Shown: positions 1,376 through 34,031, counted from the stretch's first letter. The stretch is 39,452 bases of DNA from a virus (IMGVR_UViG_3300043392_000021:1-39452); one strand, 5' to 3'. A program made the numbers and translations. The notes: generated by a model not told the origin, from the letters alone.

Positions 1376-1934
1376 ATTGGGCAAGCGATACGGCCGCCGC
1401 CATCAGCTGGACGTCAAGTCGCCAGCCGAAGCCGTCCGCGCGCTGTGCGCCAACTTCAAGGACTTCGCCGCGTTCGTTTCTTCGTCAACTGAGCGCAACA
1501 TCGGCTATCGCGTGCTGAACATGCGCGAGGAAGTCGGTGAGGACGAACTGCACAACCCCGCCGGCCAGCGCATCGCCATCGTGCCGGTGGTGGTCGGTGC
1601 TGGTGGCGCCCTGGGCAAGATCCTGCTGGGCGCCGCGCTGATCTTCGCGGCCACGTTCAACCCTTTCATCTTCCTGGGCGGGTCGGCCCTGCTGACCGGT
1701 GTCGTTGGCCAGATCGCGTTCGGCGTCGGCGTGTCGCTGGCCCTGAACGGCGTGTCGCAGCTGCTGGCGCCGACCAAGAAGGACGAGGAAAAGAAAGAGG
1801 ACAATTCCTACGTGTTCAACGGCGCGGTCAACACCACCACGCAGGGCCAGCCGGTTCCGCTTGGCTACGGCCGCATGATCGTGGGCAGCGCCATCATCAG
1901 CGCCGGCGTCAACGTGGAGGACATTGAGGTATGA
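1350..1934 (+). CDS. I: Tail assembly protein I (ubiquitin-like N-terminus, hydrophobic Gly-rich C-terminus)
   Basis: 194 aa. N-terminus MRTIILLGELGKRYG...; Gly/Ala-rich hydrophobic segment; ...PLGYGRMIVGSAIISAGV typical of the lambda I family. Synteny K-I-J. ATGA overlap with J. Confidence 0.85.
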   Translation: MRTIILLGELGKRYGRRHQLDVKSPAEAVRALCANFKDFAAFVSSSTERNIGYRVLNMREEVGEDELHNPAGQRIAIVPVVVGAGGALGKILLGAALIFAATFNPFIFLGGSALLTGVVGQIAFGVGVSLALNGVSQLLAPTKKDEEKKEDNSYVFNGAVNTTTQGQPVPLGYGRMIVGSAIISAGVNVEDIEV

Positions 1935-4900: not shown

Positions 4901-5614
4901 GACTACCAGCTGAAGCTGAACCAGAACAGCACGTTCAGCGGCACCAAGTCGAACATGGCGGCCATGGATGGCGCCTACCTGGCCCCGGCAGACACCAGCG
5001 AGACCTGGCAGAGTCACTTCACCAGCCGAGGCTGGACGACGCCACAGGACCAGATCAACGCCGGGTTCCCGGTCTACGCCATGCCGGCGCCGACCAGCGG
5101 CTACTACGAGGAAATCATCGACTACGGGTCCGTCCTGGCCAGCACCAAGATCGGCGTCACGCTGTCCTATGTGACGAGCGCCGGCACGGTCACCGTCACA
5201 CCCACCATCAGCGTGCGCAAGCTGACCACCGACCCGTGGACCAACTACGCTGGCCTGTCGTCGGTGTTCGCCACGGACTTCCGCTATGTGAAGGTCCGAT
5301 TCGACTTCGCCGGCAGCGGGAATGACGACTTCATCACCATCACCGGCATGAACGTGCGCATGGACGTCAAGCTGAAGAACGACGCCGGCACTGGCACGGC
5401 GGTGTCCACCGACAGCGGCGGCACCCCGGTGAACTTTAATGTGAGTTTCATCGACATCGAGAGCATTACCGTGACGCCATCGGGCACAGCGGCGCGGATT
5501 GCGGTTTATGATTTCGTTGACGTTCCCAATCCAACAAGTTTCAAAGTTCTATTGTTCGACACAGCCGGCAACCGCGTCAGCGGCGGGTTCAGCTGGTCGG
5601 CCAAGGGGGTCTAA
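1931..5614 (+). CDS. J: Tail tip / host specificity protein J with fibronectin-III-like repeats
   Basis: 1227 aa. N-terminus RILDLVSEGEIEGLVDGAKSIYLDDTPLQNPNGSYNFQNV... and the central YDLKLRRVQVPINY...WTDNPAWCFYDLVTNPRYGLG match the gpJ pattern. About three FN3-like repeats (e.g. YRVQWSKDDGNF..., VYEIRQGTNWDTA..., YLVRRGSTWAGA...). Confidence 0.92.
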   Translation: MTTLRSRAYGRILDLVSEGEIEGLVDGAKSIYLDDTPLQNPNGSYNFQNVTYETRSGSNDQSHIAGFPSVEAESVVGLEVKKSASVTRTISNPDVDAVRVTVSLPALYRQQDDGDLKGTSVSIAIDVQSNGGGFVPQIISRQYLTETTTISAGTFRSVSSNVYGMALTVQWGNVAIDEITNAPGFDESIHVVQYKASSASTWITTDIRRVIGENNTEATFYTPTLPAGQYDIRVIATVGTNLPPIISASAATGSPYDVISGKAQSKYQRSYRVQLSGSGPWDIRVRRLTDDTTSPKIQNKTYWDGYTEIIDAKLRYPNSALVALKFDASSFSGIPRRAYDLKLRRVQVPINYNPVTRAYTGTWNGTFKTAWTDNPAWCFYDLVTNPRYGLGGFVDPAQVDKWALYSIGQYCDELVDDGFGGTEPRFTCNIYMQSRAEAYKVVQDMASCFRSMVYWASGSLTLSQDAPSDPVALFTQSNVVDGLFTYSGSSAKARHTVALVSWNDPADLYKQKVEYVEDQDAIARFGVVQTEIVATGCTSRGQAARVGRWLLYSERYESETVTFRTGIEGAVAKPGQIVKVADASRAGVRLGGRVRSATTSAITLDAPVTLGTASWTIYAMLPDGTVAQGQVASASGNTVNLAAPISAAPQPGAQWIMSASSVEAQTFRVLSAVEQDQGIVEITALRHDPDKYDAVENGLVLQPRDITELTPVPAAPTDLVAAENLYTYQAEVRAMVNIGWSNVHGASTYRVQWSKDDGNFAEAITSTSDYDILDITPGTFVVRVYSIGPTGKQSATYAEATITALGKTAPPANVVNLASSIDKDIGVTLTWDKVADLDLDVYEIRQGTNWDTATVIGQVKATVYTLGYIPTGGQTYLVKALDTTGNYSTTAAAITVSLSAPTAVSLTQEVIDNNVLLRWTASSASLTIRHYLVRRGSTWAGATEIGTVAGLFSAIFETVAGTFTYWVAAVDLAGNVGTPTPVSALVSQPPDYQLKLNQNSTFSGTKSNMAAMDGAYLAPADTSETWQSHFTSRGWTTPQDQINAGFPVYAMPAPTSGYYEEIIDYGSVLASTKIGVTLSYVTSAGTVTVTPTISVRKLTTDPWTNYAGLSSVFATDFRYVKVRFDFAGSGNDDFITITGMNVRMDVKLKNDAGTGTAVSTDSGGTPVNFNVSFIDIESITVTPSGTAARIAVYDFVDVPNPTSFKVLLFDTAGNRVSGGFSWSAKGV

Positions 5615-6454
5615 ATGGCGAACTGGGCCAATCCAACACTTACCAGCACTTACACAAACTTCGTCACCGAGGTGAAGGACCGCGACGTCGAAGTCGCGCT
5701 GTGGTTTGAGGGCGCATCGCCCACGAACCTGCCGACCAACGCCAAGCGCCTGAACACGTCCACCGGCCGCTTCGAGAAGTGGAACGGCAGCGACTGGGTG
5801 GACGCGGTGGCCACGTTCACATTCCCCGCCCTGTCGGTCGCTGGCACCCTGGCGGTGACCGGCGCGGCCACGTTCAGCAGCACCGTGGCGCTGTCCGCAG
5901 ACCCGACCACCGCGCTGCAGGCGGCGACCAAGCAATACGTCGACAACGGCCTGACGCCGAAGGCCAACCTGGCCAGCCCAACGTTCACCGGCACGCCGGC
6001 GGCGCCGACGGCAGCCGTGGACACCAACACCACGCAACTGGCCACGACGGCGTTCGTGATCGGCCAGGGCTACGCGAAGCTGGCGTCGCCCACGTTCACC
6101 GGCACGGTGACCGCAGCAGCGCTGACCGCCACCGGCCAGGTGACGTTCAGCAGCACCGGCGCGGCCGTCCTGAACAAGGGCACCACGGCACAGCGCCCGA
6201 CGCCGGTGTCCGGCATGCTGCGGTTCAACACCACCGACAACAAGTTCGAGGGCTACAACGGCAGCGCCTGGGGCAGCATCGGCGGCGGCGCAACCGGTGG
6301 CGGGTCTGACGACATCTTCTACGAGAACGGCCAGACCGTCACGACCAGCTACAGCATCACGTCCGGCAAAAACGCTATGTCGGCCGGTCCCGTTACAATC
6401 GCGTCCGGCGTCACCGTCACGGTGCCGTCGGGCAGCACCTGGGTGGTGATCTAA
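5615..6454 (+). CDS. Tail fibre protein
   Basis: 279 aa, immediately after J. Duplicated fibre motif LASPTFTGTPAAPTAAVDTNTTQLATTAFV / LASPTFTGTVTAAAL. Also RFNTTDNKFEGYNGSAWGSIGG and the C-terminal ...GVTVTVPSGSTWVVI typical of phage fibres. Confidence 0.8.
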   Translation: MANWANPTLTSTYTNFVTEVKDRDVEVALWFEGASPTNLPTNAKRLNTSTGRFEKWNGSDWVDAVATFTFPALSVAGTLAVTGAATFSSTVALSADPTTALQAATKQYVDNGLTPKANLASPTFTGTPAAPTAAVDTNTTQLATTAFVIGQGYAKLASPTFTGTVTAAALTATGQVTFSSTGAAVLNKGTTAQRPTPVSGMLRFNTTDNKFEGYNGSAWGSIGGGATGGGSDDIFYENGQTVTTSYSITSGKNAMSAGPVTIASGVTVTVPSGSTWVVI

Positions 6455-6811
6455 ATGTCCATTCTCAAAGTCAACGCAGTCCAAGGCACCGACGGCATCG
6501 AGCGCTACCTGGCGCGCGCCTGGGTGAACTTCAACGGCACCGGAACCGTGGCGATCCGCGCCAGCGGCAATGTGTCGAGCATCACCGACAACGGCACCGG
6601 CAACTACCGGATCAACTTCACCAACGCCATGCCCGACGCCAATTTCGCATTCAGCGGCGGCTACAAGGCTGCAGACGACAGCACCGGCAGCAATTCGGAC
6701 GGCAACATCGCGCCGTTTTCGTTTTCCACGACTGGCGTCAGCGTCCTGACGCTGAACGGCGCGGCTGCTGTCAATGACTGCGCCATCGTCTGCGCAGCGA
6801 TCTACCGATAA
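6455..6811 (+). CDS. Small fibre-associated protein, paralogue 1 (putative receptor-binding tip)
   Basis: 118 aa. The ATG directly abuts the fibre stop. Shares AWVNF(N/G)GTGTVAIR.S.NV.S.TDNGTG.Y...FTN and the C-terminal CAA..R with 6821-7204. N-terminus MSILKVNAVQ resembles the next two ORFs. Confidence 0.7.
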   Translation: MSILKVNAVQGTDGIERYLARAWVNFNGTGTVAIRASGNVSSITDNGTGNYRINFTNAMPDANFAFSGGYKAADDSTGSNSDGNIAPFSFSTTGVSVLTLNGAAAVNDCAIVCAAIYR

Positions 6812-6820
6812 GGCGACACC

Positions 6821-7204
6821 ATGAGCATCGCAAAATTCGACACCCTGCAGAACGCCGCTGGCAGCAAGTCCGTGCCGGTGGCCACCGTGGTCGATGGCAG
6901 CGCCAAGGCGTGGGTGAACTTTGGCGGCACTGGCACGGTGGCAATCCGGTCCAGCTTCAACGTCACCAGCGTGACCGACAACGGCACCGGCGACTACACC
7001 GTGCTGTTCACCAACACCCTGGCCGACAGCAACATTGCATTGGCAGGCATGGGGCGGCGTTCCACAGCCGGCACCAACATTGCCCAGCTGGAACTCGCGG
7101 CCAGTTCCGGAAGCTATGGCAACTGGGGGTTCCAGGTCAAAATTTTCGACAACGCCGGCGCCCAGGTGGACGCCGAGTCCGTCATGTGCGCGGCGTTCCG
7201 ATAA
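6821..7204 (+). CDS. Small fibre-associated protein, paralogue 2 (putative receptor-binding tip)
   Basis: 127 aa. Clear paralogue of 6455-6811 (KAWVNFGGTGTVAIRSSFNVTSVTDNGTGDYTVLFTN...MCAAFR). N-terminus MSIAKFDTLQ. Confidence 0.7.
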   Translation: MSIAKFDTLQNAAGSKSVPVATVVDGSAKAWVNFGGTGTVAIRSSFNVTSVTDNGTGDYTVLFTNTLADSNIALAGMGRRSTAGTNIAQLELAASSGSYGNWGFQVKIFDNAGAQVDAESVMCAAFR

Positions 7205-7225
7205 TCAGAAAGGCAGGGCCGATGT

Positions 7226-7543
7226 GTGAGCACACTCAAAGTCAACAACATTCAAACCACCGCTGGCGTGGACCAGTTCGCAAACCTGGAGGCGTCCAGC
7301 GGCTACCAAAAACTGCCAGGCGGACTGATTATTCAGTGGGGAATTGGCGCAGCCAACACGGCGGTCACGTTCCCCATTGCGTTTCCTACTGCTGTTTTGA
7401 ATTGCGTGGTCACCACCAATTCCAGCAACACCGCCAGTAGCAACATTTCGCACGCGCATTTCCACCTGGCCACGCTGACCACGACTGGGTTCACGCGGAC
7501 CAATGACACCTACGGCTGCCGCTACATCGCCATTGGCTACTAA
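7226..7543 (+). CDS. Small fibre-tip protein (gp53-like C-terminal fibre domain type)
   Basis: GTG start. 105 aa. N-terminus MSTLKVNNIQTTAG is shared with the two upstream ORFs. LPGGLIIQWG...VTFPIAFPTAVLNCV is a motif I associate with phage tail-fibre C-terminal domains. Confidence 0.65.
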   Translation: MSTLKVNNIQTTAGVDQFANLEASSGYQKLPGGLIIQWGIGAANTAVTFPIAFPTAVLNCVVTTNSSNTASSNISHAHFHLATLTTTGFTRTNDTYGCRYIAIGY

Positions 7544-17174: not shown

Positions 17175-17552
17175 ATGAGAACGTGCGAAGATTGCCTGCA
17201 CGAGGCAAAGACAGAACACGAGGCGCCATGCAACACCTGCAACTGTTACAGCAACTGGGCGCCTGCCGGCTGCAGCAACTGCGGTGGCCCAGATGGCCGA
17301 CACGCCATCTGGTGCAAGAACAACGCCTACGCCGAGCAGCTGGTGGCCGAGAACGCCAACGCGCGCCAGGTCGGCGGCGACCACTACAAGGGCCAAGCCA
17401 TTCAGCCCTGGGACTACATCGCCAGCAACGGCCTGGGCTACTTCGAGGGCAACGTGATCAAGTATGTCAGCCGCTGGCGTGACAAGGGCGGAGTGGCCGA
17501 TCTGGAGAAGGCCAGGCACTACCTGGACAAGCTGATCGAGTTACAGAAGTGA
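17175..17552 (+). CDS. DUF3310 (SaV-like) family protein with N-terminal Cys-rich region
   Basis: GGDHYKGQAIQPWDYI...FEGNVIKYVSRWRDKGGVADLEKARHYLDKLIE matches the DUF3310 pattern. Confidence 0.75.
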   Translation: MRTCEDCLHEAKTEHEAPCNTCNCYSNWAPAGCSNCGGPDGRHAIWCKNNAYAEQLVAENANARQVGGDHYKGQAIQPWDYIASNGLGYFEGNVIKYVSRWRDKGGVADLEKARHYLDKLIELQK

Positions 17553-18085
17553 AAATCTGCCCTAAGTGCGGAGGCGAGAAAACAGGCACGCATGAAACAT
17601 ATTGCGTGACCTGTTACAACGCATACAAACGAGCCTGGTATCAGCAGAACCGGGATAAAGAGATCGCTAGGTGCGCGGCCTACAACAAAGAGAATCCGCA
17701 AGTGCCAGCTGCGGCGATGCGTAGATCAAGAGAAAAGAACCCAGAAAAGTACCGCGAGTATTCAAAGCAGTACCGAGCCAACAACCCAGAAAAGTCAGCA
17801 ATGTGGGACGCCGGCAAGCGGGCCAAGCGTAGGGCTGCAATCAACGCCACCATTGACAAGATCAGTCCGCAGCAGTGGGCAGACATCAAGCTGAAATACA
17901 AAAACCACTGCGCTTATTGCCTGCAGCCTTTTAAGAGGCTGACCATGGACCACATCATCCCACTGGCGCGTGGTGGTTCGCACACGGCTGACAACATCGT
18001 GCCGTCATGTCACCGATGCAATTCAGCAAAGCAGGCGCGCGACCAGCTGGATTTTGTGGCCAAGCGTTTCGGCAGGCTGATATGA
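17549..18085 (+). CDS. HNH endonuclease
   Basis: GTG start overlapping the upstream TGA. C-terminal CAYC...MDHIIPLARGGSHTADNIVPSCHRCNSAK (HNH/HNN motif). N-terminal CPKC...CVTC zinc finger. Visibly more A/T-rich than neighbouring genes. Confidence 0.88.
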   Translation: MKICPKCGGEKTGTHETYCVTCYNAYKRAWYQQNRDKEIARCAAYNKENPQVPAAAMRRSREKNPEKYREYSKQYRANNPEKSAMWDAGKRAKRRAAINATIDKISPQQWADIKLKYKNHCAYCLQPFKRLTMDHIIPLARGGSHTADNIVPSCHRCNSAKQARDQLDFVAKRFGRLI

Positions 18086-18435
18086 GCGAAGCCGCAATTC
18101 AGCAGCAAATCAGGCTGGCATTGTCGCGTGCTGGTGCCGTGATGCACAGGAACAATATCGGCGCTTACTTCGACCCAAAAACTGGCCGCATGATCCAGTA
18201 CGGCGTCTGCAATCCCGGCGGCAGTGACCTGATCGGCTGGTGCCCCGTTGAGGTCACCCCCGACATGGTGGGAAAGAAAATCGCTGTGTTTTGTGCCGTT
18301 GAGGTCAAGACTGGCACTGGCAGGCCCACCGAGGCACAAATCAACTTCATCACCCAAGTTCTGAAAGCTGGCGGCTACGCTGGCATCGCACGGTCACCAG
18401 AGGACGCTGTTGCGATAACGCGACGCGACAAATAA
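18082..18435 (+). CDS. VRR-NUC domain nuclease
   Basis: 117 aa. GGSDLIGW...FCAVEVKTGTGRPTEAQINFITQVLKAGG (D...ExK core plus Q..F). ATGA overlap with HNH. Confidence 0.8.
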   Translation: MSEAAIQQQIRLALSRAGAVMHRNNIGAYFDPKTGRMIQYGVCNPGGSDLIGWCPVEVTPDMVGKKIAVFCAVEVKTGTGRPTEAQINFITQVLKAGGYAGIARSPEDAVAITRRDK

Positions 18436-18529
18436 ATATTAGGGTTTGTCCTAATCGGAAACCCAAATTTCTTGGCATAATTGCGGACATGGACAGCACG
18501 GTGCTGACCACCAACGAAAGGACCGCAAC

Positions 18530-24347: not shown

Positions 24348-24860
24348 ATGGTCGCCCCTACAGCCTACGCAAAACACCGTGGCGTGAGCCTGCAGGCGGT
24401 CATGAAGGCCATCCACGAGGGCCGCCTGGTCGAGTCCGTCACGCGCCGCGAGTCCGGCCGCTACGACGTGGACCCGGTGAAGGCCGACGCCGAATGGTCG
24501 GCCAACACCGACAGCGGCCAGGGCGCACCTGCCCACCTAGCGAACCGCCCGGCAGCCGAGCCGGACGACATCGAGGCCGAGGACGGCCAGCCCATCACCT
24601 ACGCCGAGGCCCGCGCCCAGCATGAACGGTTCAAGGCGCGCCTAGCGCAGCTGGAACTGGAGCAGCGCGAGGGCAAGCTGGTCGAGGCCGACGCGGTGCG
24701 CCGCGAGGCGTTCCGGGTGGCGCGCATTGTGCGCGACGCGCTGCTGAACCTACCCGACCGGGTGGCCGGTGAACTGGCCGCCGAAACCAACCAATTCAAG
24801 GTCCACCAGCGCCTGGTGCAGGAGATCCGCCGCGCGCTGGAGGACCTGAAACTAGAATGA
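24348..24860 (+). CDS. Terminase small subunit (Nu1-like)
   Basis: ATG 24348 (the track start 24342 is TTG). N-terminal HTH-like YAKHRGVSLQAVMKAIHEGRL. C-terminal ELEQREGKLVEADAVRREAFRVARIVRDALLNLPDRVA is typical of Nu1-type small terminases. ATGA overlap with the large subunit. Confidence 0.8.
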   Translation: MVAPTAYAKHRGVSLQAVMKAIHEGRLVESVTRRESGRYDVDPVKADAEWSANTDSGQGAPAHLANRPAAEPDDIEAEDGQPITYAEARAQHERFKARLAQLELEQREGKLVEADAVRREAFRVARIVRDALLNLPDRVAGELAAETNQFKVHQRLVQEIRRALEDLKLE

Positions 24861-26743
24861 ACGACGGCGCCCTGACCTACCGCCAGGCCTTTGCGGACGG
24901 CCTGCGACCAGATCCCGACTACACCGTCAGCACCTGGGCCGATGCCAACCGCATGCTGTCGCAGAAGGCATCAGCAGAGCCTGGCCCATGGCGCACAGAC
25001 CGCACACCCTACCTGGGCGAGGTGATGGACGAACTGTCGCCCAGCAGCCCCGCGCAGCGGGTGGTGCTGATGGCCGGCGCGCAGATCGGCAAGTCCGAGA
25101 CCGGCAACAACTGGCTGGGCTACGTGATCCACCACGCGCCTGGCCCGATGCTGATGGTGCAGCCGACCGTGGACACGGCCAAGCGGTTCAGCAAGCAGCG
25201 CCTGGCGCCCATGATCGAGGAAACCCCGATCCTGAAGCAGCGCATTGCCAACAACACCAGCCGCGATGCGTCCAACAGCATGATGGCCAAGGAGTTCGAC
25301 GGCGGCGTGCTGATTATCACGGGCGCGAACAGCGCGGCCGGCCTGCGGTCCATGCCCATCCGCTACCTGTTCCTGGACGAGATCGACGCCTACCCGCTGG
25401 ACGTGGACGGCGAAGGCGACCCCATCCAGCTGGCGGAGAAGCGCACCACGACGTTCGCCAGGCGCAAGGTCTACATGTGCAGCACGCCGACCATCAAGGA
25501 CGTGTCGCGCATCGAGCGTGAGTTCATGCGCAGCGACCAGCGGCGCTATTTCGTGGCGTGCCCGCACTGTGGCCACAAGCAGCATCTGCGCTGGGCGCAG
25601 CTGAAGTGGACGGACGACGACCCCGAGACGGCGGCCTATGCCTGCGAGTCCTGCGGCACGCTGATCGAGGAACGGCACAAGACCGAGATGCTGGCCGGCG
25701 GCGAGTGGCGCGCGACGGCGACGGGCGACGGCAAGACCGTCGGGTTCCACATCAACAGCCTGTATTCGCCCTTGGGCTGGAAGTCCTGGGCCGAGATCGT
25801 GGCCGAGTTCCAGCAGGCCAAGGGCGACGCGGCATTGCTCAAGACGTTCGTGAACACGGTGCTGGGCGAAACCTGGGAGGAAGAATACGCCACCAAGCTG
25901 GGCGCCGACGACCTGAAGAACCGGGTGGAGTTCTACACCGCAGGCGTCGCCCCTGCCCGCGCCCTGGTGGTGACGGCAGCCGTGGACGTCCAGGACAACC
26001 GCCTGGCGGTCAAGCTGGTGGGCTGGGGCCGCGACGAGGAAGGCTGGGTCATCGACCACATGGAGATCTACGGCGACCCGGCGCAGCCCAAGGTCTGGCA
26101 GCAGCTGGACGAGATCATCCTGAAACCCGTGGCGCATGAACTGGCGCAGCCGGTCAAGGTCATGGCCACGGCCATCGACAGCGGTGGTCACTTTACCAGC
26201 GAGGTCTACGCCTACTGCCGCGACCGGCGCCAGCACAACGTGTTTGCCATCAAGGGCCAGAGCCAGCGCGGCAAGCCGCCCATCGGGAAGCCCACCAAGG
26301 TGGACCTGAACTGGAAGGGCCGGACGATCAAGTCGGGCGCCGAGGTCTACCCGGTGGGTTCGGACACCATCAAGTCCACGATCTTCGCCAGGCTGAAGCT
26401 GAACGAGCCAGGGCCAGGCTATCTGCACTTCCACGCCGAGCTACCCAGCGACTATTTCGACCAATTGACCGCTGAAAAGCAGGTCACGCGCTACGTTAAG
26501 GGTTTTCCCGTGCGTGAATGGGTCAAGAAGTCGGGCGCGCGCAACGAGGCGCTGGACGTGATGGTCTACAACTACGCCGCCCTGCAGTGGCTATACACCC
26601 GGTTCAGCCGGCGGACGATCTGGGACCAGTTCGAGAAATCACTGAACATCACGCCAAAAACAGAGCCTGAAAACGCACCTGTGGCACAGAATAAGCCCGC
26701 CCAAGGTAAAATAAGGCGCGGCAACTTCATCGCAAACTGGTGA
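24857..26743 (+). CDS. A: Terminase large subunit (lambda gpA family)
   Basis: 628 aa. N-terminus FADGLRPDPDYTVSTWADANRML...PGPWRTDRTPYLGEVMD, P-loop-like GAQIGKSE, and zinc-ribbon CPHCGH...CESCG are typical of GpA terminases. Confidence 0.92.
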   Translation: MNDGALTYRQAFADGLRPDPDYTVSTWADANRMLSQKASAEPGPWRTDRTPYLGEVMDELSPSSPAQRVVLMAGAQIGKSETGNNWLGYVIHHAPGPMLMVQPTVDTAKRFSKQRLAPMIEETPILKQRIANNTSRDASNSMMAKEFDGGVLIITGANSAAGLRSMPIRYLFLDEIDAYPLDVDGEGDPIQLAEKRTTTFARRKVYMCSTPTIKDVSRIEREFMRSDQRRYFVACPHCGHKQHLRWAQLKWTDDDPETAAYACESCGTLIEERHKTEMLAGGEWRATATGDGKTVGFHINSLYSPLGWKSWAEIVAEFQQAKGDAALLKTFVNTVLGETWEEEYATKLGADDLKNRVEFYTAGVAPARALVVTAAVDVQDNRLAVKLVGWGRDEEGWVIDHMEIYGDPAQPKVWQQLDEIILKPVAHELAQPVKVMATAIDSGGHFTSEVYAYCRDRRQHNVFAIKGQSQRGKPPIGKPTKVDLNWKGRTIKSGAEVYPVGSDTIKSTIFARLKLNEPGPGYLHFHAELPSDYFDQLTAEKQVTRYVKGFPVREWVKKSGARNEALDVMVYNYAALQWLYTRFSRRTIWDQFEKSLNITPKTEPENAPVAQNKPAQGKIRRGNFIANW

Positions 26744-26747
26744 GAAC

Positions 26748-27302
26748 ATGAACGTCCCAGCCATCATCTATGCCGGCGACACTGTAAAGTGGAACGAGCC
26801 GGCGACTGCAGACTACAGCAGCGCCGCTGGCTGGACGGCCACGTTCGCCCTGCGCCACGCGACCGGGAACGACGCCCTGAACATCACCGGCGTGGCCGAT
26901 GGTGTCGGCGGGTGGAACTTCACGATCACGGCGGCGCAGTCGGCCGGCCTGCACGTCAACGGCCACTACTGGCAGATCGCCGTCACCAAGGACGGCGAGC
27001 GCTACACCCTGGGCACCGGCACGCTGGAGACCAAGGCGAACATCCCGGCCAGCGGCAACACCTACGACGGCCGCAGCCAGGCGCAGATCGACCTGGAGGC
27101 GGTGCGCGCTGAGATGCGCGCGCGGATCACGGGCGGCAGCGTGCAGGAATACACCATCGGCAATCGGTCGCTGAAGAAGATCCCGATGGCCGACCTGATC
27201 GCGCTGGAAACCAAGCTGAAGGCGGACGTGGCGCGCGACGCCCGCGCCGACCGCCTGGCCAAGGGCATGAACAGCGGCCGCGCCGTTTACGTGAGGTTCT
27301 GA
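26748..27302 (+). CDS. Head-tail joining gpW-like domain fused to an N-terminal beta-rich domain
   Basis: 184 aa. The C-terminal about 75 aa (QIDLEAVRAEMRARITGGSVQEYTIGNRSLKKIPMADLIALETKL...GRAVYVRF) resembles lambda gpW including its C-terminal end. The N-terminal about 105 aa has no lambda counterpart. Confidence 0.7.
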   Translation: MNVPAIIYAGDTVKWNEPATADYSSAAGWTATFALRHATGNDALNITGVADGVGGWNFTITAAQSAGLHVNGHYWQIAVTKDGERYTLGTGTLETKANIPASGNTYDGRSQAQIDLEAVRAEMRARITGGSVQEYTIGNRSLKKIPMADLIALETKLKADVARDARADRLAKGMNSGRAVYVRF

Positions 27303-27303
27303 C

Positions 27304-29025
27304 ATGGGAATTCTGGATTTCTTCAAGCGCAAGGCACCGCCTGCGCCCGCGCGTCGCCGTGGGTTTCAAGGCGCGATGTATAACCGCCTGGTGGCCGACT
27401 GGATCACGTCCAGCACCAGCATGGACGCCGAGATCCGCAAGGACCTCAAGCGCCTGCGCGACCGGTCGCGCGACCTGGTGCGCAACAACGACTACGCCCG
27501 CAGCGCCCAGCGCGCCATCACCAACAACGTGGTGGGCCAAGGCGTCAAGATGCAGGCCAGCGTCAAGATGCGGCGCGGCAACCGCATGGACGACACGACC
27601 AACGCCATGGTCGAGGCGGCCTGGGAGAAGTGGAAGCGCAAGCAGCACTGCCACACCGCTGGCGTGCTGTCGTTCAGCGACATCGAGCGCCAGCTGCTGG
27701 ACGCCATGCCGAGCGACGGCGAGATCTTCGTGCGCAAGATCCGCCAGGCCTTCGGTGGCGGCCGCGTGCCGTTCGCCCTGGAGGTCATCGAGGCCGACCG
27801 CCTGGACATCGACCTGAACGAGATGGCCAAGAACGGCAACGAGATCCGCATGGGCGTCGAGCGCGACAGCTGGGGCCGTGCGGTGGCCTATCACTTCAAG
27901 AGCGAACACCCTGGCGACTACCCGTTCGGCGCCGGCGCGGTCAGCAACAAGACCATCCGCGTGCCGGCAGATGACGTCATCCACCTGTTCAAGCAGGAGC
28001 GCCCAGGTCAGACCCGTGGCGTGCCGTGGATCGCGTCGGCCATCATGAAGATGCACCACCTGCAGGGCTACACCGAGGCCGAGGTCATCGCGGCCCGCGC
28101 CGAGGCCTGCCGCATGGGTTTCATCACGTCGCCCGAGGATGACGTCATGAAGGACGGCCAGCAGGACAGCGTGGACGTGGCGAACTTCGAGCCTGGCCTG
28201 ATCCAGCGCCTGCTGCCTGGCGAGACGTTCCAGGACAGCAAGCCCAACCGACCTGGCGGCCAGTATGAGCCGTTCGTGCGCGCCATGCTGCATTCCCTGG
28301 CCGCCGGCCTGGGCGTCAGCTACGCCACCCTGTCGCGCGACTACAGCCAGGCGAACTACAGCAGCGGCCGCCTGGCGCTGCTGGACGACCGCGACAACTG
28401 GCGCGTCCTGCAGGGCTGGCTGGTCGAGAACTTCCACCGGCCGGTTTTCGAGGAATGGCTGGACCTGGCGGTCCTGTCGGGCGAACTGCAGCTGAACGGC
28501 TACGAGGCCAACCCCGAGCCGTTCCGCGCGGTGCGCTGGATTCCGCGCGGCTGGCAGTGGGTTGACCCAGCCAAAGAGATGGCCGCCTACAAGGACGCGG
28601 TGCGCAGCGGTTTCACCACCCTGTCCGACGTCATCGCCCAGCAGGGCGGCGACATCGAGGACGTCATGCAGCAGCGCCAGCGCGAACTGCAGATGGCCCA
28701 GGACATGGACCTGGTGTTCGACACCGACCCTGGCGCCGTGGACAATAAGGGCGCCAACCAGGCCGACCCGGCAGCCGCCGCTGCGGCCGACCAGGCGCCG
28801 GCCGAGCCGCAGCGCGACATGAACATCACGGTGCAGACCGCGCCGCTGAACATCACGCTGAAAACCGACACCGAGGTCATCGAGCGCAAGCGCGACATTA
28901 AAATCGTGCGCAACGCCGACGGCATGGTCACTGGGGCCGAGGCCGTCATCGAGGGCGAACGCAAAGCAATCAGCCTGGTGAAGTGCGACCAGGGCAAAAT
29001 CACCAACACCGGAACCGAGGGTTAA
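27304..29025 (+). CDS. B: Portal protein (lambda gpB family)
   Basis: 573 aa. Sits after terminase and W. ...RLRDRSRDLVRNNDYARSAQRAITNNVVGQGVK... and SRDYSQANYSSGRLALLDDRDNW match the lambda-type portal pattern. Confidence 0.9.
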   Translation: MGILDFFKRKAPPAPARRRGFQGAMYNRLVADWITSSTSMDAEIRKDLKRLRDRSRDLVRNNDYARSAQRAITNNVVGQGVKMQASVKMRRGNRMDDTTNAMVEAAWEKWKRKQHCHTAGVLSFSDIERQLLDAMPSDGEIFVRKIRQAFGGGRVPFALEVIEADRLDIDLNEMAKNGNEIRMGVERDSWGRAVAYHFKSEHPGDYPFGAGAVSNKTIRVPADDVIHLFKQERPGQTRGVPWIASAIMKMHHLQGYTEAEVIAARAEACRMGFITSPEDDVMKDGQQDSVDVANFEPGLIQRLLPGETFQDSKPNRPGGQYEPFVRAMLHSLAAGLGVSYATLSRDYSQANYSSGRLALLDDRDNWRVLQGWLVENFHRPVFEEWLDLAVLSGELQLNGYEANPEPFRAVRWIPRGWQWVDPAKEMAAYKDAVRSGFTTLSDVIAQQGGDIEDVMQQRQRELQMAQDMDLVFDTDPGAVDNKGANQADPAAAAAADQAPAEPQRDMNITVQTAPLNITLKTDTEVIERKRDIKIVRNADGMVTGAEAVIEGERKAISLVKCDQGKITNTGTEG

Positions 29026-29028
29026 CCC

Positions 29029-29442
29029 ATGCCTATCACCACCGCCATCTGCAATTCCTACAAGCAGGAAATCCTGGAGGGCGTTCACAGCAACGCCGAC
29101 ACCTACAAGCTGGCCCTGTTCACGTCGGCCGCCACCCTGGGCGCCACGACCACGGCCTACAGCACCACCAACGAGGTCAGCGGCACCGGCTACACCGCAG
29201 GCGGCGCCACACTGACGGGCCTGTCCACCGGCCTGGCCAGCGGCACGGCCTACCTGACGTTCAGCGACCCCAGCTGGGCCAGTAGCACCATCACGGCGCG
29301 CGGCTGCCTGATCTACAACGCCAGCAAGGGCAACAAGGCCGTGGCCGTGTTCGACTTTGGCGCCGACGTCACCAGCACCAATGGCACGTTCACGGTGGAC
29401 CTGCCGGCAGCCGGCGCGTCCAGCCTGGTCCGCATCGCGTAA
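29029..29442 (+). CDS. Hypothetical protein (137 aa), first gene of the head-module insertion
   Basis: Starts 3 nt after the portal stop. Thr/Ala/Gly-rich beta-type sequence (GTGYTAGGATLTGLSTG...). No protease or scaffold motifs. Confidence 0.6.
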   Translation: MPITTAICNSYKQEILEGVHSNADTYKLALFTSAATLGATTTAYSTTNEVSGTGYTAGGATLTGLSTGLASGTAYLTFSDPSWASSTITARGCLIYNASKGNKAVAVFDFGADVTSTNGTFTVDLPAAGASSLVRIA

Positions 29443-29451
29443 GAGGTCCAG

Positions 29452-30867
29452 ATGGCCATCGAAGTCAAACACGCTACACAGGCGGTCGGCACTGACGCTG
29501 GCAACGGCGAGATCCGCAAGGCGCAATGGAACGAGGGCCACAGCATCAACCTGGCAGCCAGCCGGCTGTTGGGTCGGTTCAGTGCGACCGATGGCGCGGC
29601 GCAGGAAATCAGCGTCGGGTCTGGCCTGACCCTGGACAGCAGCACTGGCGTGCTGTCGGCGTCTGGCGGTGGCGCATCTATTGCGATTGTCAGTGTTACT
29701 GCCCCCTACACAGTTACTGCGGCAGACAGCGGCAAAATTTTGAATGTCACCGCTGGCGTCACAGTGTCTTTGACGGCAGCCGCAACACTTGGCGCTGGTT
29801 TCAATTGTTGGATCTGGAACACTTCTGCTAATAACTTTGTCACGATTGACCCCAATGCGTCAGAAACGATTGACGGTGTTGCGACCTTGGACTTGAGACA
29901 AGGTGAAGGGACGCAAATTGTTTGCCTTGGCACTGAGTGGCAAACGGGCGACAAAAAAACCATGCGGAGTTACTCAGAGAATTTGAACCCAACAGTCACA
30001 AGACCGCAAGCAAACGGCGCAAACAGCATTGCACTAGGGGCAAGCAGTTCTGGTGTTGGGTCTCTTTCATTTTCTGGTTCTCTTGCAGTTAATGGCAGCA
30101 GGGCAGGTGGGACAGATTCTTTCGCCGCAATAATTGGTAACGCAACATCAAGCTACGGAACAACCAATTCAAACGCAGTTGCGATTGGGCCGCTTGCACT
30201 TGCCAGTGGAGCGTCATCAGTTGCTATCGGGCAAAGCACTAGTGTCACTGGCGGCAGTGCGCTTGGTATGCAAACCTTGCAGACCACAACGTCTGGTCTA
30301 CGCAGTGCGTCTTTTTCTTCATACTTATCGTCAAACACAGCAAACTACGGTCTTTTGCTTCCGTCCGAATCCGCCAGTGTCACACAATCGTATGGGATTG
30401 CACAAGGCTACTATGCCTTCGCTGACTCAATTGGCAAGTTTGCGCGCGGGATGCCTATTACCTGGGACAAACTTGGAGGGCATCAAATTGCATCTTTAGG
30501 ATTGGCTGCAGTCACAAGCAATTCAACGCCGGTGGTTATGACATCTAATGGCGCAGCGCCATCAACAAACAATCAGTTGGTTATACCGAACTACAATGCA
30601 ACCGCATTTAGTGGAATTATTGTTGCCCGCCAAATCTCTAGTGGAGTCAACTGCGCCGCATTTAAAATTGAAGGTCTTTTGCATCGGTTTTCAAACACTA
30701 CGACCCTAGTGGCAAGCACGGTAACGGCAATCAGCAACACGCCTGGCTGGGTAGTGTCTTTGGCGGCAGATACCACAAACAGGGCATTGGCAATTAGCGT
30801 GACTGGAGCAGCTGCGGCAACAGTTCGATGGATTGCAAACATCAGCACCGCAGAAGTTGGTTTTTAA
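29452..30867 (+). CDS. Fibre/adhesin-like protein (471 aa) with a composition break after about 65 codons
   Basis: AAGAGG ribosome-binding site. N-terminus ...WNEGHSINLAASRLLGRFSATDGAAQEISVGSGLTLDSSTGVLSA. Central repeats NSIALGASSSG / NAVAIGPLALASG / SSVAIGQSTSVTG are reminiscent of YadA-head/Hep_Hag repeats. Ser/Thr/Ala/Asn-rich throughout. From about 29650 on, the DNA is visibly more A/T-rich. Confidence 0.65.
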   Translation: MAIEVKHATQAVGTDAGNGEIRKAQWNEGHSINLAASRLLGRFSATDGAAQEISVGSGLTLDSSTGVLSASGGGASIAIVSVTAPYTVTAADSGKILNVTAGVTVSLTAAATLGAGFNCWIWNTSANNFVTIDPNASETIDGVATLDLRQGEGTQIVCLGTEWQTGDKKTMRSYSENLNPTVTRPQANGANSIALGASSSGVGSLSFSGSLAVNGSRAGGTDSFAAIIGNATSSYGTTNSNAVAIGPLALASGASSVAIGQSTSVTGGSALGMQTLQTTTSGLRSASFSSYLSSNTANYGLLLPSESASVTQSYGIAQGYYAFADSIGKFARGMPITWDKLGGHQIASLGLAAVTSNSTPVVMTSNGAAPSTNNQLVIPNYNATAFSGIIVARQISSGVNCAAFKIEGLLHRFSNTTTLVASTVTAISNTPGWVVSLAADTTNRALAISVTGAAAATVRWIANISTAEVGF

Positions 30868-30876
30868 GGGAACATC

Positions 30877-31179
30877 ATGGCTATTGAACACAACGTTGAA
30901 AATTCTCAATACGGCATTGCATTTAATAATGCCTATTTCCGAATTGATACCGCAATGATTTTGCGGTGGCCTACGCCGAAGGATTCCAAGCATTTCGTTT
31001 CTCTTGACCTTTATTGTTTTGCAACAAAGCCTTTGGATCAAAACACGGTTCCTTTGAATGTCCAAAAGTTGCACGCGCCGCTTGAAGAAGTCGAAGCGCA
31101 AGACGGCGGGAATTTTTTGGCGAAATGCTATGCCTGGGTCATGACCCAGCCTGACATGGCCGGGTCTGTGTCGGTCTGA
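30877..31179 (+). CDS. Hypothetical protein (100 aa), A/T-richer
   Basis: AAGGGA ribosome-binding site. Shares the atypical composition of the upstream gene's 3' part. Confidence 0.55.
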   Translation: MAIEHNVENSQYGIAFNNAYFRIDTAMILRWPTPKDSKHFVSLDLYCFATKPLDQNTVPLNVQKLHAPLEEVEAQDGGNFLAKCYAWVMTQPDMAGSVSV

Positions 31180-31196
31180 CAAAGTAAGGCAAAGCC

Positions 31197-32114
31197 GTGG
31201 CAACGTTTGATTCCGGCATTTTCGACACTGGCATCTTTGACACGTTTGTCAGCGTCAGCGCCGTGGCCAGCGTCACTGGTGCCCAGGTCGCAAGCCAAGC
31301 AGCAACGGTGCAGGGCCTGGGCGGCGCAACAGGCCAAGCGCTTGGCGGCGAGGCGACGTCAGCGGCCGGTGCGGTTTCTGCATTTGTCCAGATCAACGCC
31401 ACAGCAAGTGTCACTGGCGCTCAAGCCGCGGGTGCGGCCGGCATTGTCACGGCTACGGCCACCGCGTCAGGCACCGCAGCCGTGTCCGGTGCCCAGGCAT
31501 CGACCAGCGCTGGCGCCGCGTCTGTCAGCGGCCAAGCGAACATCGCAGTCAGCGGCACACAGATCACCAGCACGACTGGAACGGCAGCTGGCATCACGTC
31601 GGCATCCGTCAGCATTGCTGGCGCCCAAGCCGCCGCCACCGCCGGCACCGTCATCGCCCTGGGCACCGGATCTGGCGTGGGCACTGTCGCAGGCGCCCAG
31701 GCATCCACGGCCACCGGCCAGGCCGCAGCAGCTGGCCAGGCCAACATCACCGCCACGGGCATCCAGGTCACCATCACCACCGGCACGGTCGGCGTCAGCC
31801 TGTCGGCCACCGTCAGCCTGGCTGGTGCCGAGGCGCGCGCCGCAGCTGGCCAGGTCACCGCGAACGACGGATCTGCCAAGCCTGGCGTGCGCGTGGTGGA
31901 CTATGCCCCGCGTTTCGTCACCAAGAAGGACGCCAAGGCGCGCGTGGTGCCGGTCGAGGCATTGGCCACGGCCGGCCGCGTCGAGGCATTCGGCCAGCGC
32001 AACGTGGTCGCGCGGACTACCTGCGCGCATTCGCGCCTGGTGCGCGGTCGCGTGCGCGGACGTGGCGTGCAGAACCCATCCGACGAGGACATCGCGCTGC
32101 TGCTGGCCCTGTAA
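31197..32114 (+). CDS. Tandem-repeat Ala/Gly/Thr-rich protein (305 aa)
   Basis: GTG start. N-terminus FDSGIFDTGIFDTF, then about nine degenerate roughly 22-aa repeats of type A.(V/I)(S/T)G(A/T)Q(A/I).(S/T).(A/T)G.(A/V). Basic C-terminal region ending NPSDEDIALLLAL. Confidence 0.65.
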   Translation: MATFDSGIFDTGIFDTFVSVSAVASVTGAQVASQAATVQGLGGATGQALGGEATSAAGAVSAFVQINATASVTGAQAAGAAGIVTATATASGTAAVSGAQASTSAGAASVSGQANIAVSGTQITSTTGTAAGITSASVSIAGAQAAATAGTVIALGTGSGVGTVAGAQASTATGQAAAAGQANITATGIQVTITTGTVGVSLSATVSLAGAEARAAAGQVTANDGSAKPGVRVVDYAPRFVTKKDAKARVVPVEALATAGRVEAFGQRNVVARTTCAHSRLVRGRVRGRGVQNPSDEDIALLLAL

Positions 32115-32124
32115 GTCAGCGTTT

Positions 32125-32153
32125 TTCACGCTTTGCCGACTTGGCGTTATAAT
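32125..32153 (+). promoter_or_regulatory. Possible sigma70-type promoter upstream of the protease-capsid gene
   Basis: TTCACG, a 17-nt spacer, then TATAAT (perfect -10), read directly. Confidence 0.3.
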
Positions 32154-32189: not shown

Positions 32190-34031
32190 ATGCAAGACGA
32201 ACAGAAGCGGTTTCAACTGCCGCAGCTGACCAGAGCGATTCAAACCGACGAGGCCATCACGGTCGATGCCGGATCGCGCACGGTCGAATTCCCGTTTTCC
32301 AGCGAACTGGCGGTCGAACGCTGGTTCGGTGACGAGGTGCTGTCGCACAAGTCCGGCGCTGCAGATCTGACCCGCCTGAACGACGGCGCCCCGCTGCTGT
32401 TCAACCACGACATGGACGAGATCATCGGCGTGGTCGAGAAGGCCTGGATTGGCGACGACAAGCGCGGCCACGCCCGCGTGCGCTTTGCCAAGACGGCGCG
32501 CGCCGAGGAAATCATGTCGATGGTCGAGGATGGCATCCTGCGCAACGTGTCGTTCGGCTACCGCATCAACGAAATGGTGGAGGCCGTCAAGAACGGCAAG
32601 TCCACATACACGGCGACCCGATGGGAGCCGTTTGAGGTGTCTATGGTTACGGTTCCGGCTGACCACACTGTGGGCATTGGCCGGGCCGAGGCCAAAGACG
32701 AGCGCGATGTCGTAGTGCATCGCATTCAAGAGGAATCCGCACAGCCTGCGGAAATCACCATCGAGGAACCAACCATGACCGAGCAATCCGCACCCGTGGA
32801 CGTGCAGGTGGTGGCCACGCAGGCTGCCGAAGCCGAGCGTTCGCGCATCGCCGCCATTGAGGCACTGGGCCAGCGTTTCAACGCACCCGATCTTTCCCGC
32901 AAACTCATCAGCGACGGCACCGCCCTGGACGCCGCCCGCGCCGCTTTCCTGGAGGAAATCAAAGTGGACCAGAAACCCCTGACCGGCAAAGAAGCCGACG
33001 TCGGCCTGACCGACAAAGAAGTGCGTTCGTTCAGCGTGCTGCGCGCCCTGAACGCCCTGGCCAACCCGGCCGACAAGAAGGCCTGGGAAGAAGCCGCATT
33101 CGAGCGCGAGGTGTCGGAAGCCGCTTCCAAGGCTGCCGGCAAGGCCGCCCGTGGCATCTTCGTGCCTGGCGAAGTCCTGCGCGCCAAGCGTGACCTGACG
33201 GCTGGCACCGCCACCGCCGGCGGCAACCTGGTCGCCACCGACCTGCTGGCTGCCAGCTTCATCGACCTGCTGCGCAACCGTTCGGTGGTTCAGCGTGCTG
33301 GCGCCACCGTGATGAACGGCCTGGTGGGCAACATCGCCATCCCGAAGCAGACCGGTGCTGCGACCGCCTACTGGGTGGCCGAATCCGGCGCGCCGACCGA
33401 GAGCCAGCAGACCGTGGGCCAGGTCACCATGACGCCCCGCACCGTGGGCGCCTTCACCGACTTCAGCCGCCGCCTGATCCTTCAGTCGAGCCTGGACGTC
33501 GAGAACATGGTGCGCCGCGACCTGGCCGCCGTGATTGCCCTGGCCATCGACACCGCCGCCCTGTATGGCACCGGCGCGTCGAACCAGCCGACCGGCCTGA
33601 AGCTGCAGTCGGGCATCAACACCAAGGACTTCGCGGCCACGAACCCGACGTTCGCTGAACTGGTGGCGATGGAATCCGAAGTGGCCGTGGACAACGCCGA
33701 CGTGGGCACCATGCGCTACCTGCTGAACCCGGCCCAGCGCGGCGCCGCCAAGTCCACCGAGAAGTTCGCTGGCACCGGCATGACCATCTGGGAACCCGGC
33801 AACAGCATCAACGGCTACGGCACCGAGGTGTCCAACCAGGTGACCGCCGGCGACGTGTTCTTCGGCAACTTCGCCGACCTGATGATCGGTTTCTGGTCTG
33901 GCCTGGACCTGACCGTGGACCCCTACGCTGGCGCCACCAGCGGCACGGTCCGCGTGATCGCCCTGCAGGACTGCGACATCGCCGTCCGCAACGCGGTCAG
34001 CTTCTGCTACGGCAACGCCGGCCTGGCCTAA
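32190..34031 (+). CDS. Fused prohead protease (HK97/S78 type) - linker - HK97-fold major capsid protein
   Basis: ATG 32190 (the track start is TTG 32133). The N-terminal about 190 aa has the protease pattern (EFPFSSELAVERWFG...LLFNHDMDEIIGVVEKAW...SFGYRI...EPFEVSMVTVPADHTVGIG). A helical Ala/Glu-rich linker follows. The C-terminal about 330 aa has the HK97 MCP pattern (LLRNRSVVQRAGATV...NIAIPKQTGAATAYWVAE...FSRRLILQSSLDVENMVRRDLA...ALYGTGASNQPTGL). Confidence 0.88.
   Translation: MQDEQKRFQLPQLTRAIQTDEAITVDAGSRTVEFPFSSELAVERWFGDEVLSHKSGAADLTRLNDGAPLLFNHDMDEIIGVVEKAWIGDDKRGHARVRFAKTARAEEIMSMVEDGILRNVSFGYRINEMVEAVKNGKSTYTATRWEPFEVSMVTVPADHTVGIGRAEAKDERDVVVHRIQEESAQPAEITIEEPTMTEQSAPVDVQVVATQAAEAERSRIAAIEALGQRFNAPDLSRKLISDGTALDAARAAFLEEIKVDQKPLTGKEADVGLTDKEVRSFSVLRALNALANPADKKAWEEAAFEREVSEAASKAAGKAARGIFVPGEVLRAKRDLTAGTATAGGNLVATDLLAASFIDLLRNRSVVQRAGATVMNGLVGNIAIPKQTGAATAYWVAESGAPTESQQTVGQVTMTPRTVGAFTDFSRRLILQSSLDVENMVRRDLAAVIALAIDTAALYGTGASNQPTGLKLQSGINTKDFAATNPTFAELVAMESEVAVDNADVGTMRYLLNPAQRGAAKSTEKFAGTGMTIWEPGNSINGYGTEVSNQVTAGDVFFGNFADLMIGFWSGLDLTVDPYAGATSGTVRVIALQDCDIAVRNAVSFCYGNAGLA

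Follow-up and report, generated by a model that had tools for sequence, protein, structure and literature searches.

Four genes between portal and capsid

The JGI metagenomic viral contig IMGVR_UViG_3300043392_000021, whose entire 39,452 bp we refer to as the window, has the gene layout of a complete lambda-like siphovirus genome. Between its portal gene and its protease-capsid fusion gene lie four open reading frames (ORFs) encoding proteins of 137, 471, 100 and 305 amino acids (aa), which we call ORF1 to ORF4 (Table 1) and which a first-pass annotation of the sequence had placed exactly. All four are on the + strand of the late head operon and leave gaps of just 3-17 nucleotides (nt); ORF1 starts 4 nt from the portal stop, and the block genes adjoin the portal gene in the head/neck cluster. 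We consider it likely that the products of this block are virion components forming an accessory adhesion fibre and, with somewhat less assurance, that the block is a modular accessory-fibre (adhesin) locus within the head-gene cluster.

In searches of Pfam, PHROGs and NCBIfam, none of the four proteins matched a family of proteases, scaffolds or decoration proteins, in line with the initial description of the block as lacking such motifs, and we rejected a scaffold, protease or decoration protein as the identity of the block because it found no support. PDB sequence searches returned nothing relevant for ORF1 to ORF4 or for an ORF1 profile. Two of the proteins had been described as fibre- or repeat-like, and this description fits both ORF2, which matched the YadA_head family (PF05658) at 20.6 bits, below the gathering cut-off of 25, and ORF4, which carries tandem repeats. 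ORF1 belongs to PHROG 644, which has no assigned function, and has no Pfam entry.

Table 1. Features of the portal-capsid slot of the window and its flanks. GC3, G+C content at third codon positions.
Feature	Position	Strand	Remarks
ORF1	29029..29442	+	137 aa; proposed fibre bead/adaptor subunit (GP4 Fiber-I-like/whisker-like); PHROG 644, AlphaFold2 (AF2), Foldseek; GC3 0.92
ORF2	29452-30867	+	471 aa
ORF2, N-terminal ~75 codons	29452..29676	+	probable attachment segment; near-native composition, GC3 0.77 (codons 1-75)
ORF2, distal part (codons 76-471)	29677..30867	+	YadA-head-like shaft and C-terminal domain; GC3 0.44, GC 0.50
ORF3	30877..31179	+	100 aa; small partner of ORF2-type fibres; GC3 0.50
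Exchangeable cassette	29443..31632	+	ORF2, ORF3 and N-terminal half of ORF4; unrelated to L099 DNA
ORF4	31197..32114	+	305 aa; repeat 'stalk/rope' protein; GC3 0.755
ORF4, tandem repeats (aa ~24-225)	31266..31871	+	period 22-24 aa; motif V[ST]GAQ....G.V.A
ORF4, C-terminal domain (aa 226-305)	31872..32114	+	...YAPRFV...NPSDEDIALLLAL; conserved; proposed virion anchor
gpA-type large terminase	24857-26743		
Head-tail joining protein	26748-27302	+	184 aa; PHROG 5774
Lambda-type portal	27304..29025	+	left flank, outside block; Pfam Phage_portal_2, E 3e-114
Terminator-like hairpin	32101-32121	+	upstream of capsid gene
Sigma-70-like promoter match	32125-32153	+	TTCACG-17-TATAAT; 10/12 positions match
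Protease-capsid fusion	32190..34031	+	right flank; Peptidase_S78 and Phage_capsid; probable start ATG 32190

Conserved residents and an exchanged cassette

The first-pass annotation had suggested comparing relatives for the presence of the block, and the block proved to be absent from phiRSP and Mano, cultured phages that share the head module and in which the capsid gene is seen to follow the portal gene directly; in S-CBS1/3 the same adjacency is implied by coordinate spans. Within a large metagenomic clade of ~36-40 kb phages, ORF1 and the repeats and C-terminus of ORF4 are conserved residents. ORF1 comes first and an ORF4-like protein last in the portal-capsid slot of every clade member examined, while the middle differs. 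In L010-12 the slot holds ORF1 and a 214-aa ORF4-like protein only. ORF1 is followed in L008 and L101 by a 610-612-aa protein with a weak CBM_4_9 match, an 87-aa protein and a 281-aa ORF4-like protein, and in L099 and L100 by a 56-aa ORF and a fusion protein of 616 aa (L099) or 572 aa (L100).

L099 and L100 are the nearest relatives of the window. Compared to L099, protein identity is 100% for the large terminase (TerL), 98.4% for the portal and 99.5% for the capsid. At the DNA level, identity is 98.2% as far as base 29442, where the ORF1 stop codon ends, and 97.1% from base 31633, which falls within the ORF4 repeats. In place of the intervening cassette, L099 has the 56-aa ORF and a 345-aa adhesin-like domain at the N-terminus of its 616-aa protein, the C-terminal 263 aa of which correspond to ORF4-like repeats and C-terminus at 68% identity. 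In both L099 (5592-7442) and L100 (5592-7310), the 345-aa domain starts MANRYWVGGTGNWN...NWS..SGG and continues in frame into the ORF4-like repeats; it had no Pfam match, and the 56-aa ORF ahead of the fusion is acidic. Since the breakpoints fall at two conserved elements, the slot is a recombination hot-spot and behaves like a receptor-binding locus.

The A/T-rich centre of the block that was noticed at the outset is real, with a GC content of 0.41-0.57 across ~29650-31150 compared to 0.64 for the whole window. GC3 is 0.84-0.93 in the core genes, and a composition break lies inside ORF2, near codon 75 (values for the block are in Table 1). The GC3 profile therefore limits the foreign DNA to ~29680-31180, the distal four-fifths of ORF2 plus ORF3, and does not extend it to the whole block. 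ORF1 is native in composition, ORF1 and ORF4 together are native or near-native, and the ORF2 shaft/tip and ORF3 are of foreign origin. The first-pass annotation had proposed a single four-gene insertion. Such an event is ruled out by the composition break, the L099 comparison and the breakpoints: ORF1 and the ORF4 repeats and C-terminus are resident clade-wide, and only 29443-31632 is exchanged compared to L099.

ORF2 and ORF3 as a portable pair

ORF2 has more than 1,100 homologues, and most of the 120 listed carry a precomputed PF05658 assignment; tblastn matched it to annotated tail fibres. The context of ORF2 and ORF3 homologues was examined in two genomes, L005 and L006. In L005, a P22-like podovirus, the portal gene is followed by genes for proteins of 120 aa and 132 aa (the latter ORF1-like, 22% identity), a 475-aa ORF2-like protein (45%) and a 100-aa ORF3-like protein (45%), and then by further genes, tailspike, scaffold and coat. 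The pair of the lambda-like siphovirus L006 is encoded downstream of gpJ, at the canonical fibre locus. The distal part of ORF2 is 45-46% identical to the fibres of both genomes, while the N-terminus differs in L006. An ORF2 N-terminal motif is shared by fibres encoded right after ORF1-like genes, in L005 and in Microcystis phage MJing1. In ORF2, a conserved N-terminus, the probable attachment part, is thus joined to a distal portion that has been exchanged horizontally.

Homologues of ORF3 (39-45% identity) lie immediately 3' of both ORF2 homologues examined. ORF3 had no match in Pfam, PHROG, NCBIfam or the PDB, hence none to a tail-fibre-assembly family, and tblastn found no cultured-phage match for ORF3 or ORF4. 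By eye, ORF3 seemed similar to the 87-aa protein of L008, but an all-against-all phmmer comparison did not support this. We conclude that ORF2 and ORF3 are a portable fibre tip and its partner, with a resident N-terminal adapter segment, and we infer that ORF3 is a chaperone or a tip-associated accessory.

These observations bear on the idea that the block is a moron or accessory cargo outside the virion, such as a factor for the cell surface or for superinfection exclusion, which landed in a permissive intergenic site. Such cargo would be in keeping with the foreign base composition of ORF2 and ORF3, the lack of functional annotation for ORF3 and ORF4, the terminator-like hairpin after ORF4 and the promoter-like site ahead of the capsid gene. 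However, the four genes are co-oriented and closely packed within the late head operon, homologues of ORF2 and ORF3 lie in structural modules, ORF1 and ORF4 match or nearly match the composition of the genome and are conserved throughout the clade, and the fold and fusions of ORF1 are virion- or fibre-like. We regard the cargo explanation as very improbable.

ORF4 as a proposed repeat stalk

ORF4 consists of an N-terminal FDSGIFDTGIFD motif, about nine repeats of 22-24 aa, a basic segment and a conserved C-terminus. The V[ST]GAQ core of the repeat is found at residues 26, 72, 96, 118, 140, 164 and 186, with a further one at 208 added by eye. The ORF4-like proteins of the slot range from 214 to 321 aa, with whole-repeat insertions and deletions and differing N-termini, and they keep a C-terminus of the form ...NPxDE[ED]..LLLA. 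The C-terminus is the most conserved part of these proteins, the distant L013-L020 included. Together with the L099 fusion, which identifies the N-terminus as the variable, functional end of ORF4 and the C-terminus as its constant end, this makes the C-terminal domain our candidate for the virion anchor.

A large-database search with ORF4 gave three close matches, the remainder being matches to low-complexity words, and tblastn of its C-terminus against cultured phages found nothing significant. An AF2 monomer model built from a 4-sequence alignment had a predicted local distance difference test score (pLDDT) of 34 and no confident autonomous fold, and it cannot separate the structural models; an extended structure that depends on a partner or on oligomerisation would agree with this result but gains no support from it.

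ORF1, its fold and its neighbours

ORF1 belongs to a family with more than 7,900 matches, of which the best 120 are all at least 78% identical to it, many on 36-40 kb contigs; the family forms 3,426 clusters at 50% identity. Its AF2 model (pLDDT 96) shows an N-terminal helix followed by a beta-sandwich. A Foldseek search, as recommended in the first-pass annotation, gave weak tail and fibre matches for the ORF1 model. Against the PDB, the matches of ORF1 were the Bxb1 tail-tip chain at the top, Fiber I of the Ralstonia podovirus GP4 (8jou_a; Zheng et al. 2023, J Mol Biol 435:168258), T4 gp7 and the HFTV1 tail. Chain 8jou_a is the 140-aa protein AXG67775, present in 10 chains of the structure. 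An independent preprint reports that a podophage fibre-cluster protein matches the same trio, T4 gp7, GP4 Fiber I and the Sf14 whisker. Against predicted viral structures (BFVD), ORF1 reached template modelling (TM) scores of 0.7-0.88 with small phage proteins, a domain of an annotated-structural protein of phage 7-7-1 and tail-fibre proteins. Some ORF1-like domains are fused to a beta-helix protein, and some occur in tandem.

We surveyed the genomic context of ORF1 homologues at 77 IMG/VR loci. The upstream neighbour is mostly a ~209-aa protein of a PHROG annotated as virion structural or tail (34 loci), and other upstream neighbours are a ~96-aa protein, tail-fibre proteins and the portal (~10 loci, several portal families). 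Downstream lie fibres with conserved N-terminal domains (~20) or a ~220-aa adaptor-like protein (~10). Proteins with ~20-aa 'VTG' repeats, in two classes, follow the ORF1 homologue at ~20 of the 64 evaluable loci; a PDB search with the class-B repeat protein found nothing. In Microcystis phage MJing1 and L005, the ORF1-like gene lies directly upstream of a fibre gene.

The ~209-aa protein belongs to the same family (35-46% identity) as the product of the gene that precedes the GP4-Fiber-I homologues of Venkman and ctjtQ328. Since this upstream family is in common, ORF1 and Fiber I share a syntenic slot. Judged by its size, its position and how it is annotated, the ~209-aa upstream gene is a probable head-tail adaptor gene in podoviruses. 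The ORF1 and Fiber I families also gave reciprocal, collinear profile matches of 16.5-18.6 bits (hhalign E 0.01), and we treat ORF1 as probably a remote relative or an analogue of Fiber I. Separately, gene 6 of MiniFlayer (OQ357865.1, 5432-5608) weakly matches the C-terminal half of ORF1 (E 8e-4, 40% over 58 aa); this Streptomyces satellite attaches to the neck of its helper phage.

The position of ORF1 between portal and capsid also raises the possibility of a head fibre or decoration protein, with ORF1 sitting on the capsid lattice in the manner of gpD or Hoc and with ORF4 and ORF2 projecting from it. The gene position itself would suit such a role, as the lambda D gene lies upstream of E, and so would the small size and high conservation of ORF1 and the location of its homologue directly after the coat gene in Roseobacter phage CRP-603. 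On the other hand, none of ORF1 to ORF4 had a fold or profile match to gpD, Dec, Soc, Hoc, beta-tulip or other decoration proteins, and the synteny of ORF1 is with adaptor and fibre genes. In L013-L020, ORF1 homologues are 73-80% identical to ORF1 while TerL is 44-46%, portal 27-38% and capsid 38% identical, and ORF1 also occurs with P22-type and other coat proteins. A lattice-bound decoration protein is expected to co-evolve with its capsid, so the conservation of ORF1 despite diverged capsids is unlike such a protein, and we find the decoration explanation improbable. The constancy of ORF1 across diverged head modules reflects either unusually strong constraint or horizontal spread.

Another explanation holds that the proteins belong to the tail tip, as side fibres or accessories, and that their genes are ectopic in the head cluster, so that gene position says nothing of the assembly site. 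The best PDB fold match of ORF1 is a tail-tip chain, and in actinobacteriophage siphoviruses ORF1-family (Phendrix gp90) and Fiber-I-family genes are flanked by genes for minor tail proteins. Tail fibre or baseplate annotations are carried by many of the genes next to ORF1 homologues, and the ORF2 and ORF3 homologues of L006 occupy a post-gpJ fibre locus. However, the canonical locus of the window already encodes gpJ, a fibre of 279 aa and three small paralogues. ORF1 and an ORF4-like gene also directly follow the portal gene in several lineages whose portals are 27-38% identical, a recurrent linkage that is unexpected for tail-tip parts. Furthermore, the solved precedents in a like gene position, Sf14 and Bas63, are neck whiskers, and the equivalent podovirus gene follows the apparent head-tail adaptor gene. 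Ectopically encoded tail-tip parts therefore strike us as unlikely.

Proposed architecture of the fibre

We propose that ORF1 would be the small beta-sandwich subunit and conserved part of the fibre, and ORF4 its tandem-repeat stalk, with the C-terminal ~80 aa anchored to the particle and the N-terminus pointing outward. Recombination in the stretch from the end of ORF1 to the ORF4 repeats would tailor the outward end. In the phage of the window, this end may be a separate trimeric-type fibre, ORF2, with a resident N-terminus of ~75 aa and with a shaft/tip that, like ORF3, was presumably imported recently from a phage of lower GC content. The nearest relative has an adhesin-like domain fused straight onto the stalk, and other relatives would carry a beta-helix/CBM-like protein at the outward end, or nothing. 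ORF2 might dock by its resident N-terminus onto the N-terminus of ORF4 or onto ORF1. ORF1 dimers would thread the ORF4 repeats, and the number of repeats would set the length of the fibre. The function of such a fibre could be the reversible binding of host-surface glycans, which would widen or shift adsorption specificity beyond the gpJ tip and the side-fibre locus.

As to where the fibre sits, anchoring through the ORF4 C-terminus at the neck is the placement we favour, by analogy with known whiskers, although we hold it with less than even confidence. A site at the tail tip instead appears unlikely, and one on the capsid surface improbable. A tentative suggestion is that ORF1 subunits sit along the ORF4 repeats like beads on a rope. 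A broader proposal, which we offer as doubtful for now, is that ORF1 and ORF4 represent a widespread and so far undescribed class of modular "beads-on-a-rope" accessory fibres in aquatic phages, in which an extremely conserved bead polymerises on the repeats, fibre length follows from the repeat number, the N-terminus is a plug-in site for fused or docked receptor-binding proteins and the whole is mounted at the neck. The first-pass annotation had suggested a fibre or adhesin module outside the tail-fibre locus; this location stands, with a separate gpJ and fibre locus at 1931-7543, while the neck site that it also raised is put forward by analogy only.

Several points weigh against a neck-mounted accessory fibre. 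Both the virion membership and the position of the four proteins are predictions, and ORF3 and ORF4 have no annotated relatives. The match of ORF1 to 8jou_a is weak (Foldseek probability 0.89, E 0.07, TM 0.43, root-mean-square deviation 8.5), the hidden Markov model scores between the ORF1 and Fiber I families would lack significance in a large database, and hhalign of the ORF1 profile against the single sequences of GP4 Fiber I, Sf14 gp30 and Sf14 gp31 was not significant. At the sequence level (phmmer), no homologue of the GP4 93-aa adaptor or of Sf14 gp30 was found among the tested window proteins. A 325-aa repeat protein of GP4 is only a candidate for the 'rope' of the Fiber I complex, and ORF4 could equally be a self-standing trimeric beta-fibre. 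Finally, the Bxb1 tail-tip chain as top match and the tail-gene context in actinobacteriophages favour a tail-tip location.

If the accessory-fibre reading is true, host range in an abundant clade of ~38-kb phages would be set partly by a fibre of the head cluster and not by the tail-tip locus alone, and host-range prediction or phage engineering restricted to the post-gpJ region would miss a determinant. If the beads-on-a-rope class is true as well, these phages would have a second, rapidly reprogrammable host-recognition organ at the neck. The reading supplies a working functional hypothesis for PHROG 644, with its thousands of metagenomic members, and for the accompanying ~20-aa "VTG" repeat proteins, and it would tie the architectures of GP4 Fiber I and the Ounavirinae whiskers to a much wider range of sipho- and podoviruses, most of them uncultured. 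Phages that are nearly identical except across 29443-31632 are a natural experiment, in which specificity is directly mappable.

Capsid start and other features of the genome

The first-pass annotation had noted a promoter-like element after the block and supposed that the capsid gene needed its own promoter following the insertion. The element is present (Table 1), and the region contains three promoter-like sites compared to a chance expectation of 1.1 +/- 1.0. Its TTCACG...TATAAT hexamers are kept in L008 and L011, which carry another cassette or none, and not in Mano. Since the site is conserved with a different cassette or no cassette, the insertion is not its cause, and we ruled out a promoter created by insertion. 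The longest ORF of the capsid fusion begins at TTG 32133, overlapping the promoter-like site, and the ATG at 32190 and a preceding GGGGA motif are conserved in relatives (L008 and L011 aligned). The fusion most likely starts at ATG 32190 rather than TTG 32133.

The genome also encodes a 92-aa gpFII-like protein and gpU-like, tube and tape measure proteins. The window starts with gpK, gpI and a 1,227-aa gpJ, followed by the 279-aa fibre, three small paralogues and lysis genes. The segment at 5615-7543 (+), 3' of gpJ, encodes the 279-aa fibre-like ORF and then the paralogous ORFs of 118, 127 and 105 aa, which all begin MSI/T(L/A)K(V/F)N... and have GC3 values of 0.83, 0.84 and 0.72 in order. Lying at the canonical tail-fibre locus, the paralogues resemble alternative fibre-tip or accessory proteins arrayed in tandem.

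The 184-aa joining protein has a gpW/adaptor-like C-terminus (aa ~128-173) and an extra N-terminal domain of ~120 aa that looks beta-rich; Mano has a homologue of it (47 bits), though it lacks the block. This extra domain of a gpW-like protein could be a collar-like neck ring and docking site. In the non-structural half of the genome, a second low-GC island at 17500-18500 (GC 0.53-0.55 compared to 0.64) may be another recent acquisition. In L008 (569-1818) and L101 (1-831), an N6/N4 DNA methyltransferase gene and a DUF7220 gene separate the small from the large terminase gene, an insertion that is absent from the window and L099.

Comparison with known systems

The arrangement was initially taken to be undescribed, but the portal-whisker-capsid orders of Sf14 and Bas63 are precedents, and the block is similar to the neck whisker loci known from Felix-O1-like phages. 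In Shigella phage Sf14, the order is TerL, portal gp29, whiskers gp30, gp31, protease, decoration protein and capsid (PMC11821841); in Escherichia phage Bas63, it is portal gp3, whisker gp5 and major capsid protein gp8 (PMC12609058). The whisker dimers of Bas63 wrap the N-terminal rope of a collar protein "like beads on a string", and the collar's C-terminal domain sits on the connector (PMC12609058). As in the block, the Ounavirinae whiskers are encoded by accessory genes right after the portal, ahead of protease and capsid. They pair a small subunit of N-terminal helix and beta-sandwich with an extended 'rope', as ORF1 and ORF4 may do. The polarity of the Bas63 collar, with the rope N-terminal and the anchor C-terminal, equals that proposed for ORF4, and the whiskers have a suggested role in lipopolysaccharide or surface adhesion, as proposed here. 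However, we detected no sequence similarity between Sf14 gp30 or gp31 and the block proteins, and the Sf14 and Bas63 whisker chains were outside the top 50 Foldseek matches of ORF1. The Ounavirinae are myophages, whereas the block resides in a lambda-like siphovirus with a protease-capsid fusion; its rope candidate is a separate protein of ~300 aa with ~9 repeats and not a short extension; and its exchangeable distal fibre (ORF2, ORF3) is missing from the Ounavirinae whiskers.

A separate rope protein carries five Fiber-1 dimers in GP4 and is itself joined to an Ig-like fiber-tail-adaptor (PMC12609058). Fiber I (140 aa) and ORF1 (137 aa) are alike in size, N-terminal helix motif, partial fold and syntenic slot in related podophages. 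After Fiber I, the GP4 genome encodes a 325-aa repeat virion protein, a 568-aa fibre with Gly/Asn-rich repeats and the 93-aa adaptor (8jou_D). The 325-aa virion-associated protein (29948-30925, - strand) is G/A-rich, with ~20-aa repeats such as IDLTGSGLLEAAMLGSGIGSIELSGSG; neither it nor the 568-aa protein is in the PDB sequence set. The GP4 gene set (Fiber I, 325 aa, 568 aa and 93 aa) parallels ORF1, ORF4, ORF2 and ORF3 in composition, while the order differs. Homology is marginal (TM 0.43; profile matches of 16-19 bits), BLASTP found no significant similarity between ORF2 and the 568-aa fibre or between ORF4 and the 325-aa protein, and GP4 is a T=9 podovirus whereas the block phage is a siphovirus.

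The block also resembles stf/tfa-type cassettes, which likewise join a resident N-terminal segment to a horizontally exchanged distal part, with a small co-inherited downstream gene and a breakpoint inside the fibre gene; L006 uses the ORF2 and ORF3 pair at the canonical post-gpJ locus, as such cassettes do. Unlike them, the block lies in the head cluster, is linked with ORF1 and a repeat-stalk protein in place of gpJ/gpK-proximal proteins, and has in ORF3 a partner without any family match. To our knowledge, a portal-adjacent accessory-fibre arrangement has not yet been described in lambda-like long-tailed phages. Altogether, we class the block with the whisker or accessory-fibre loci next to portal genes, which are a known kind, and what is new is its lambda-like siphovirus setting, its long repeat stalk and its plug-in receptor-binding cassette.

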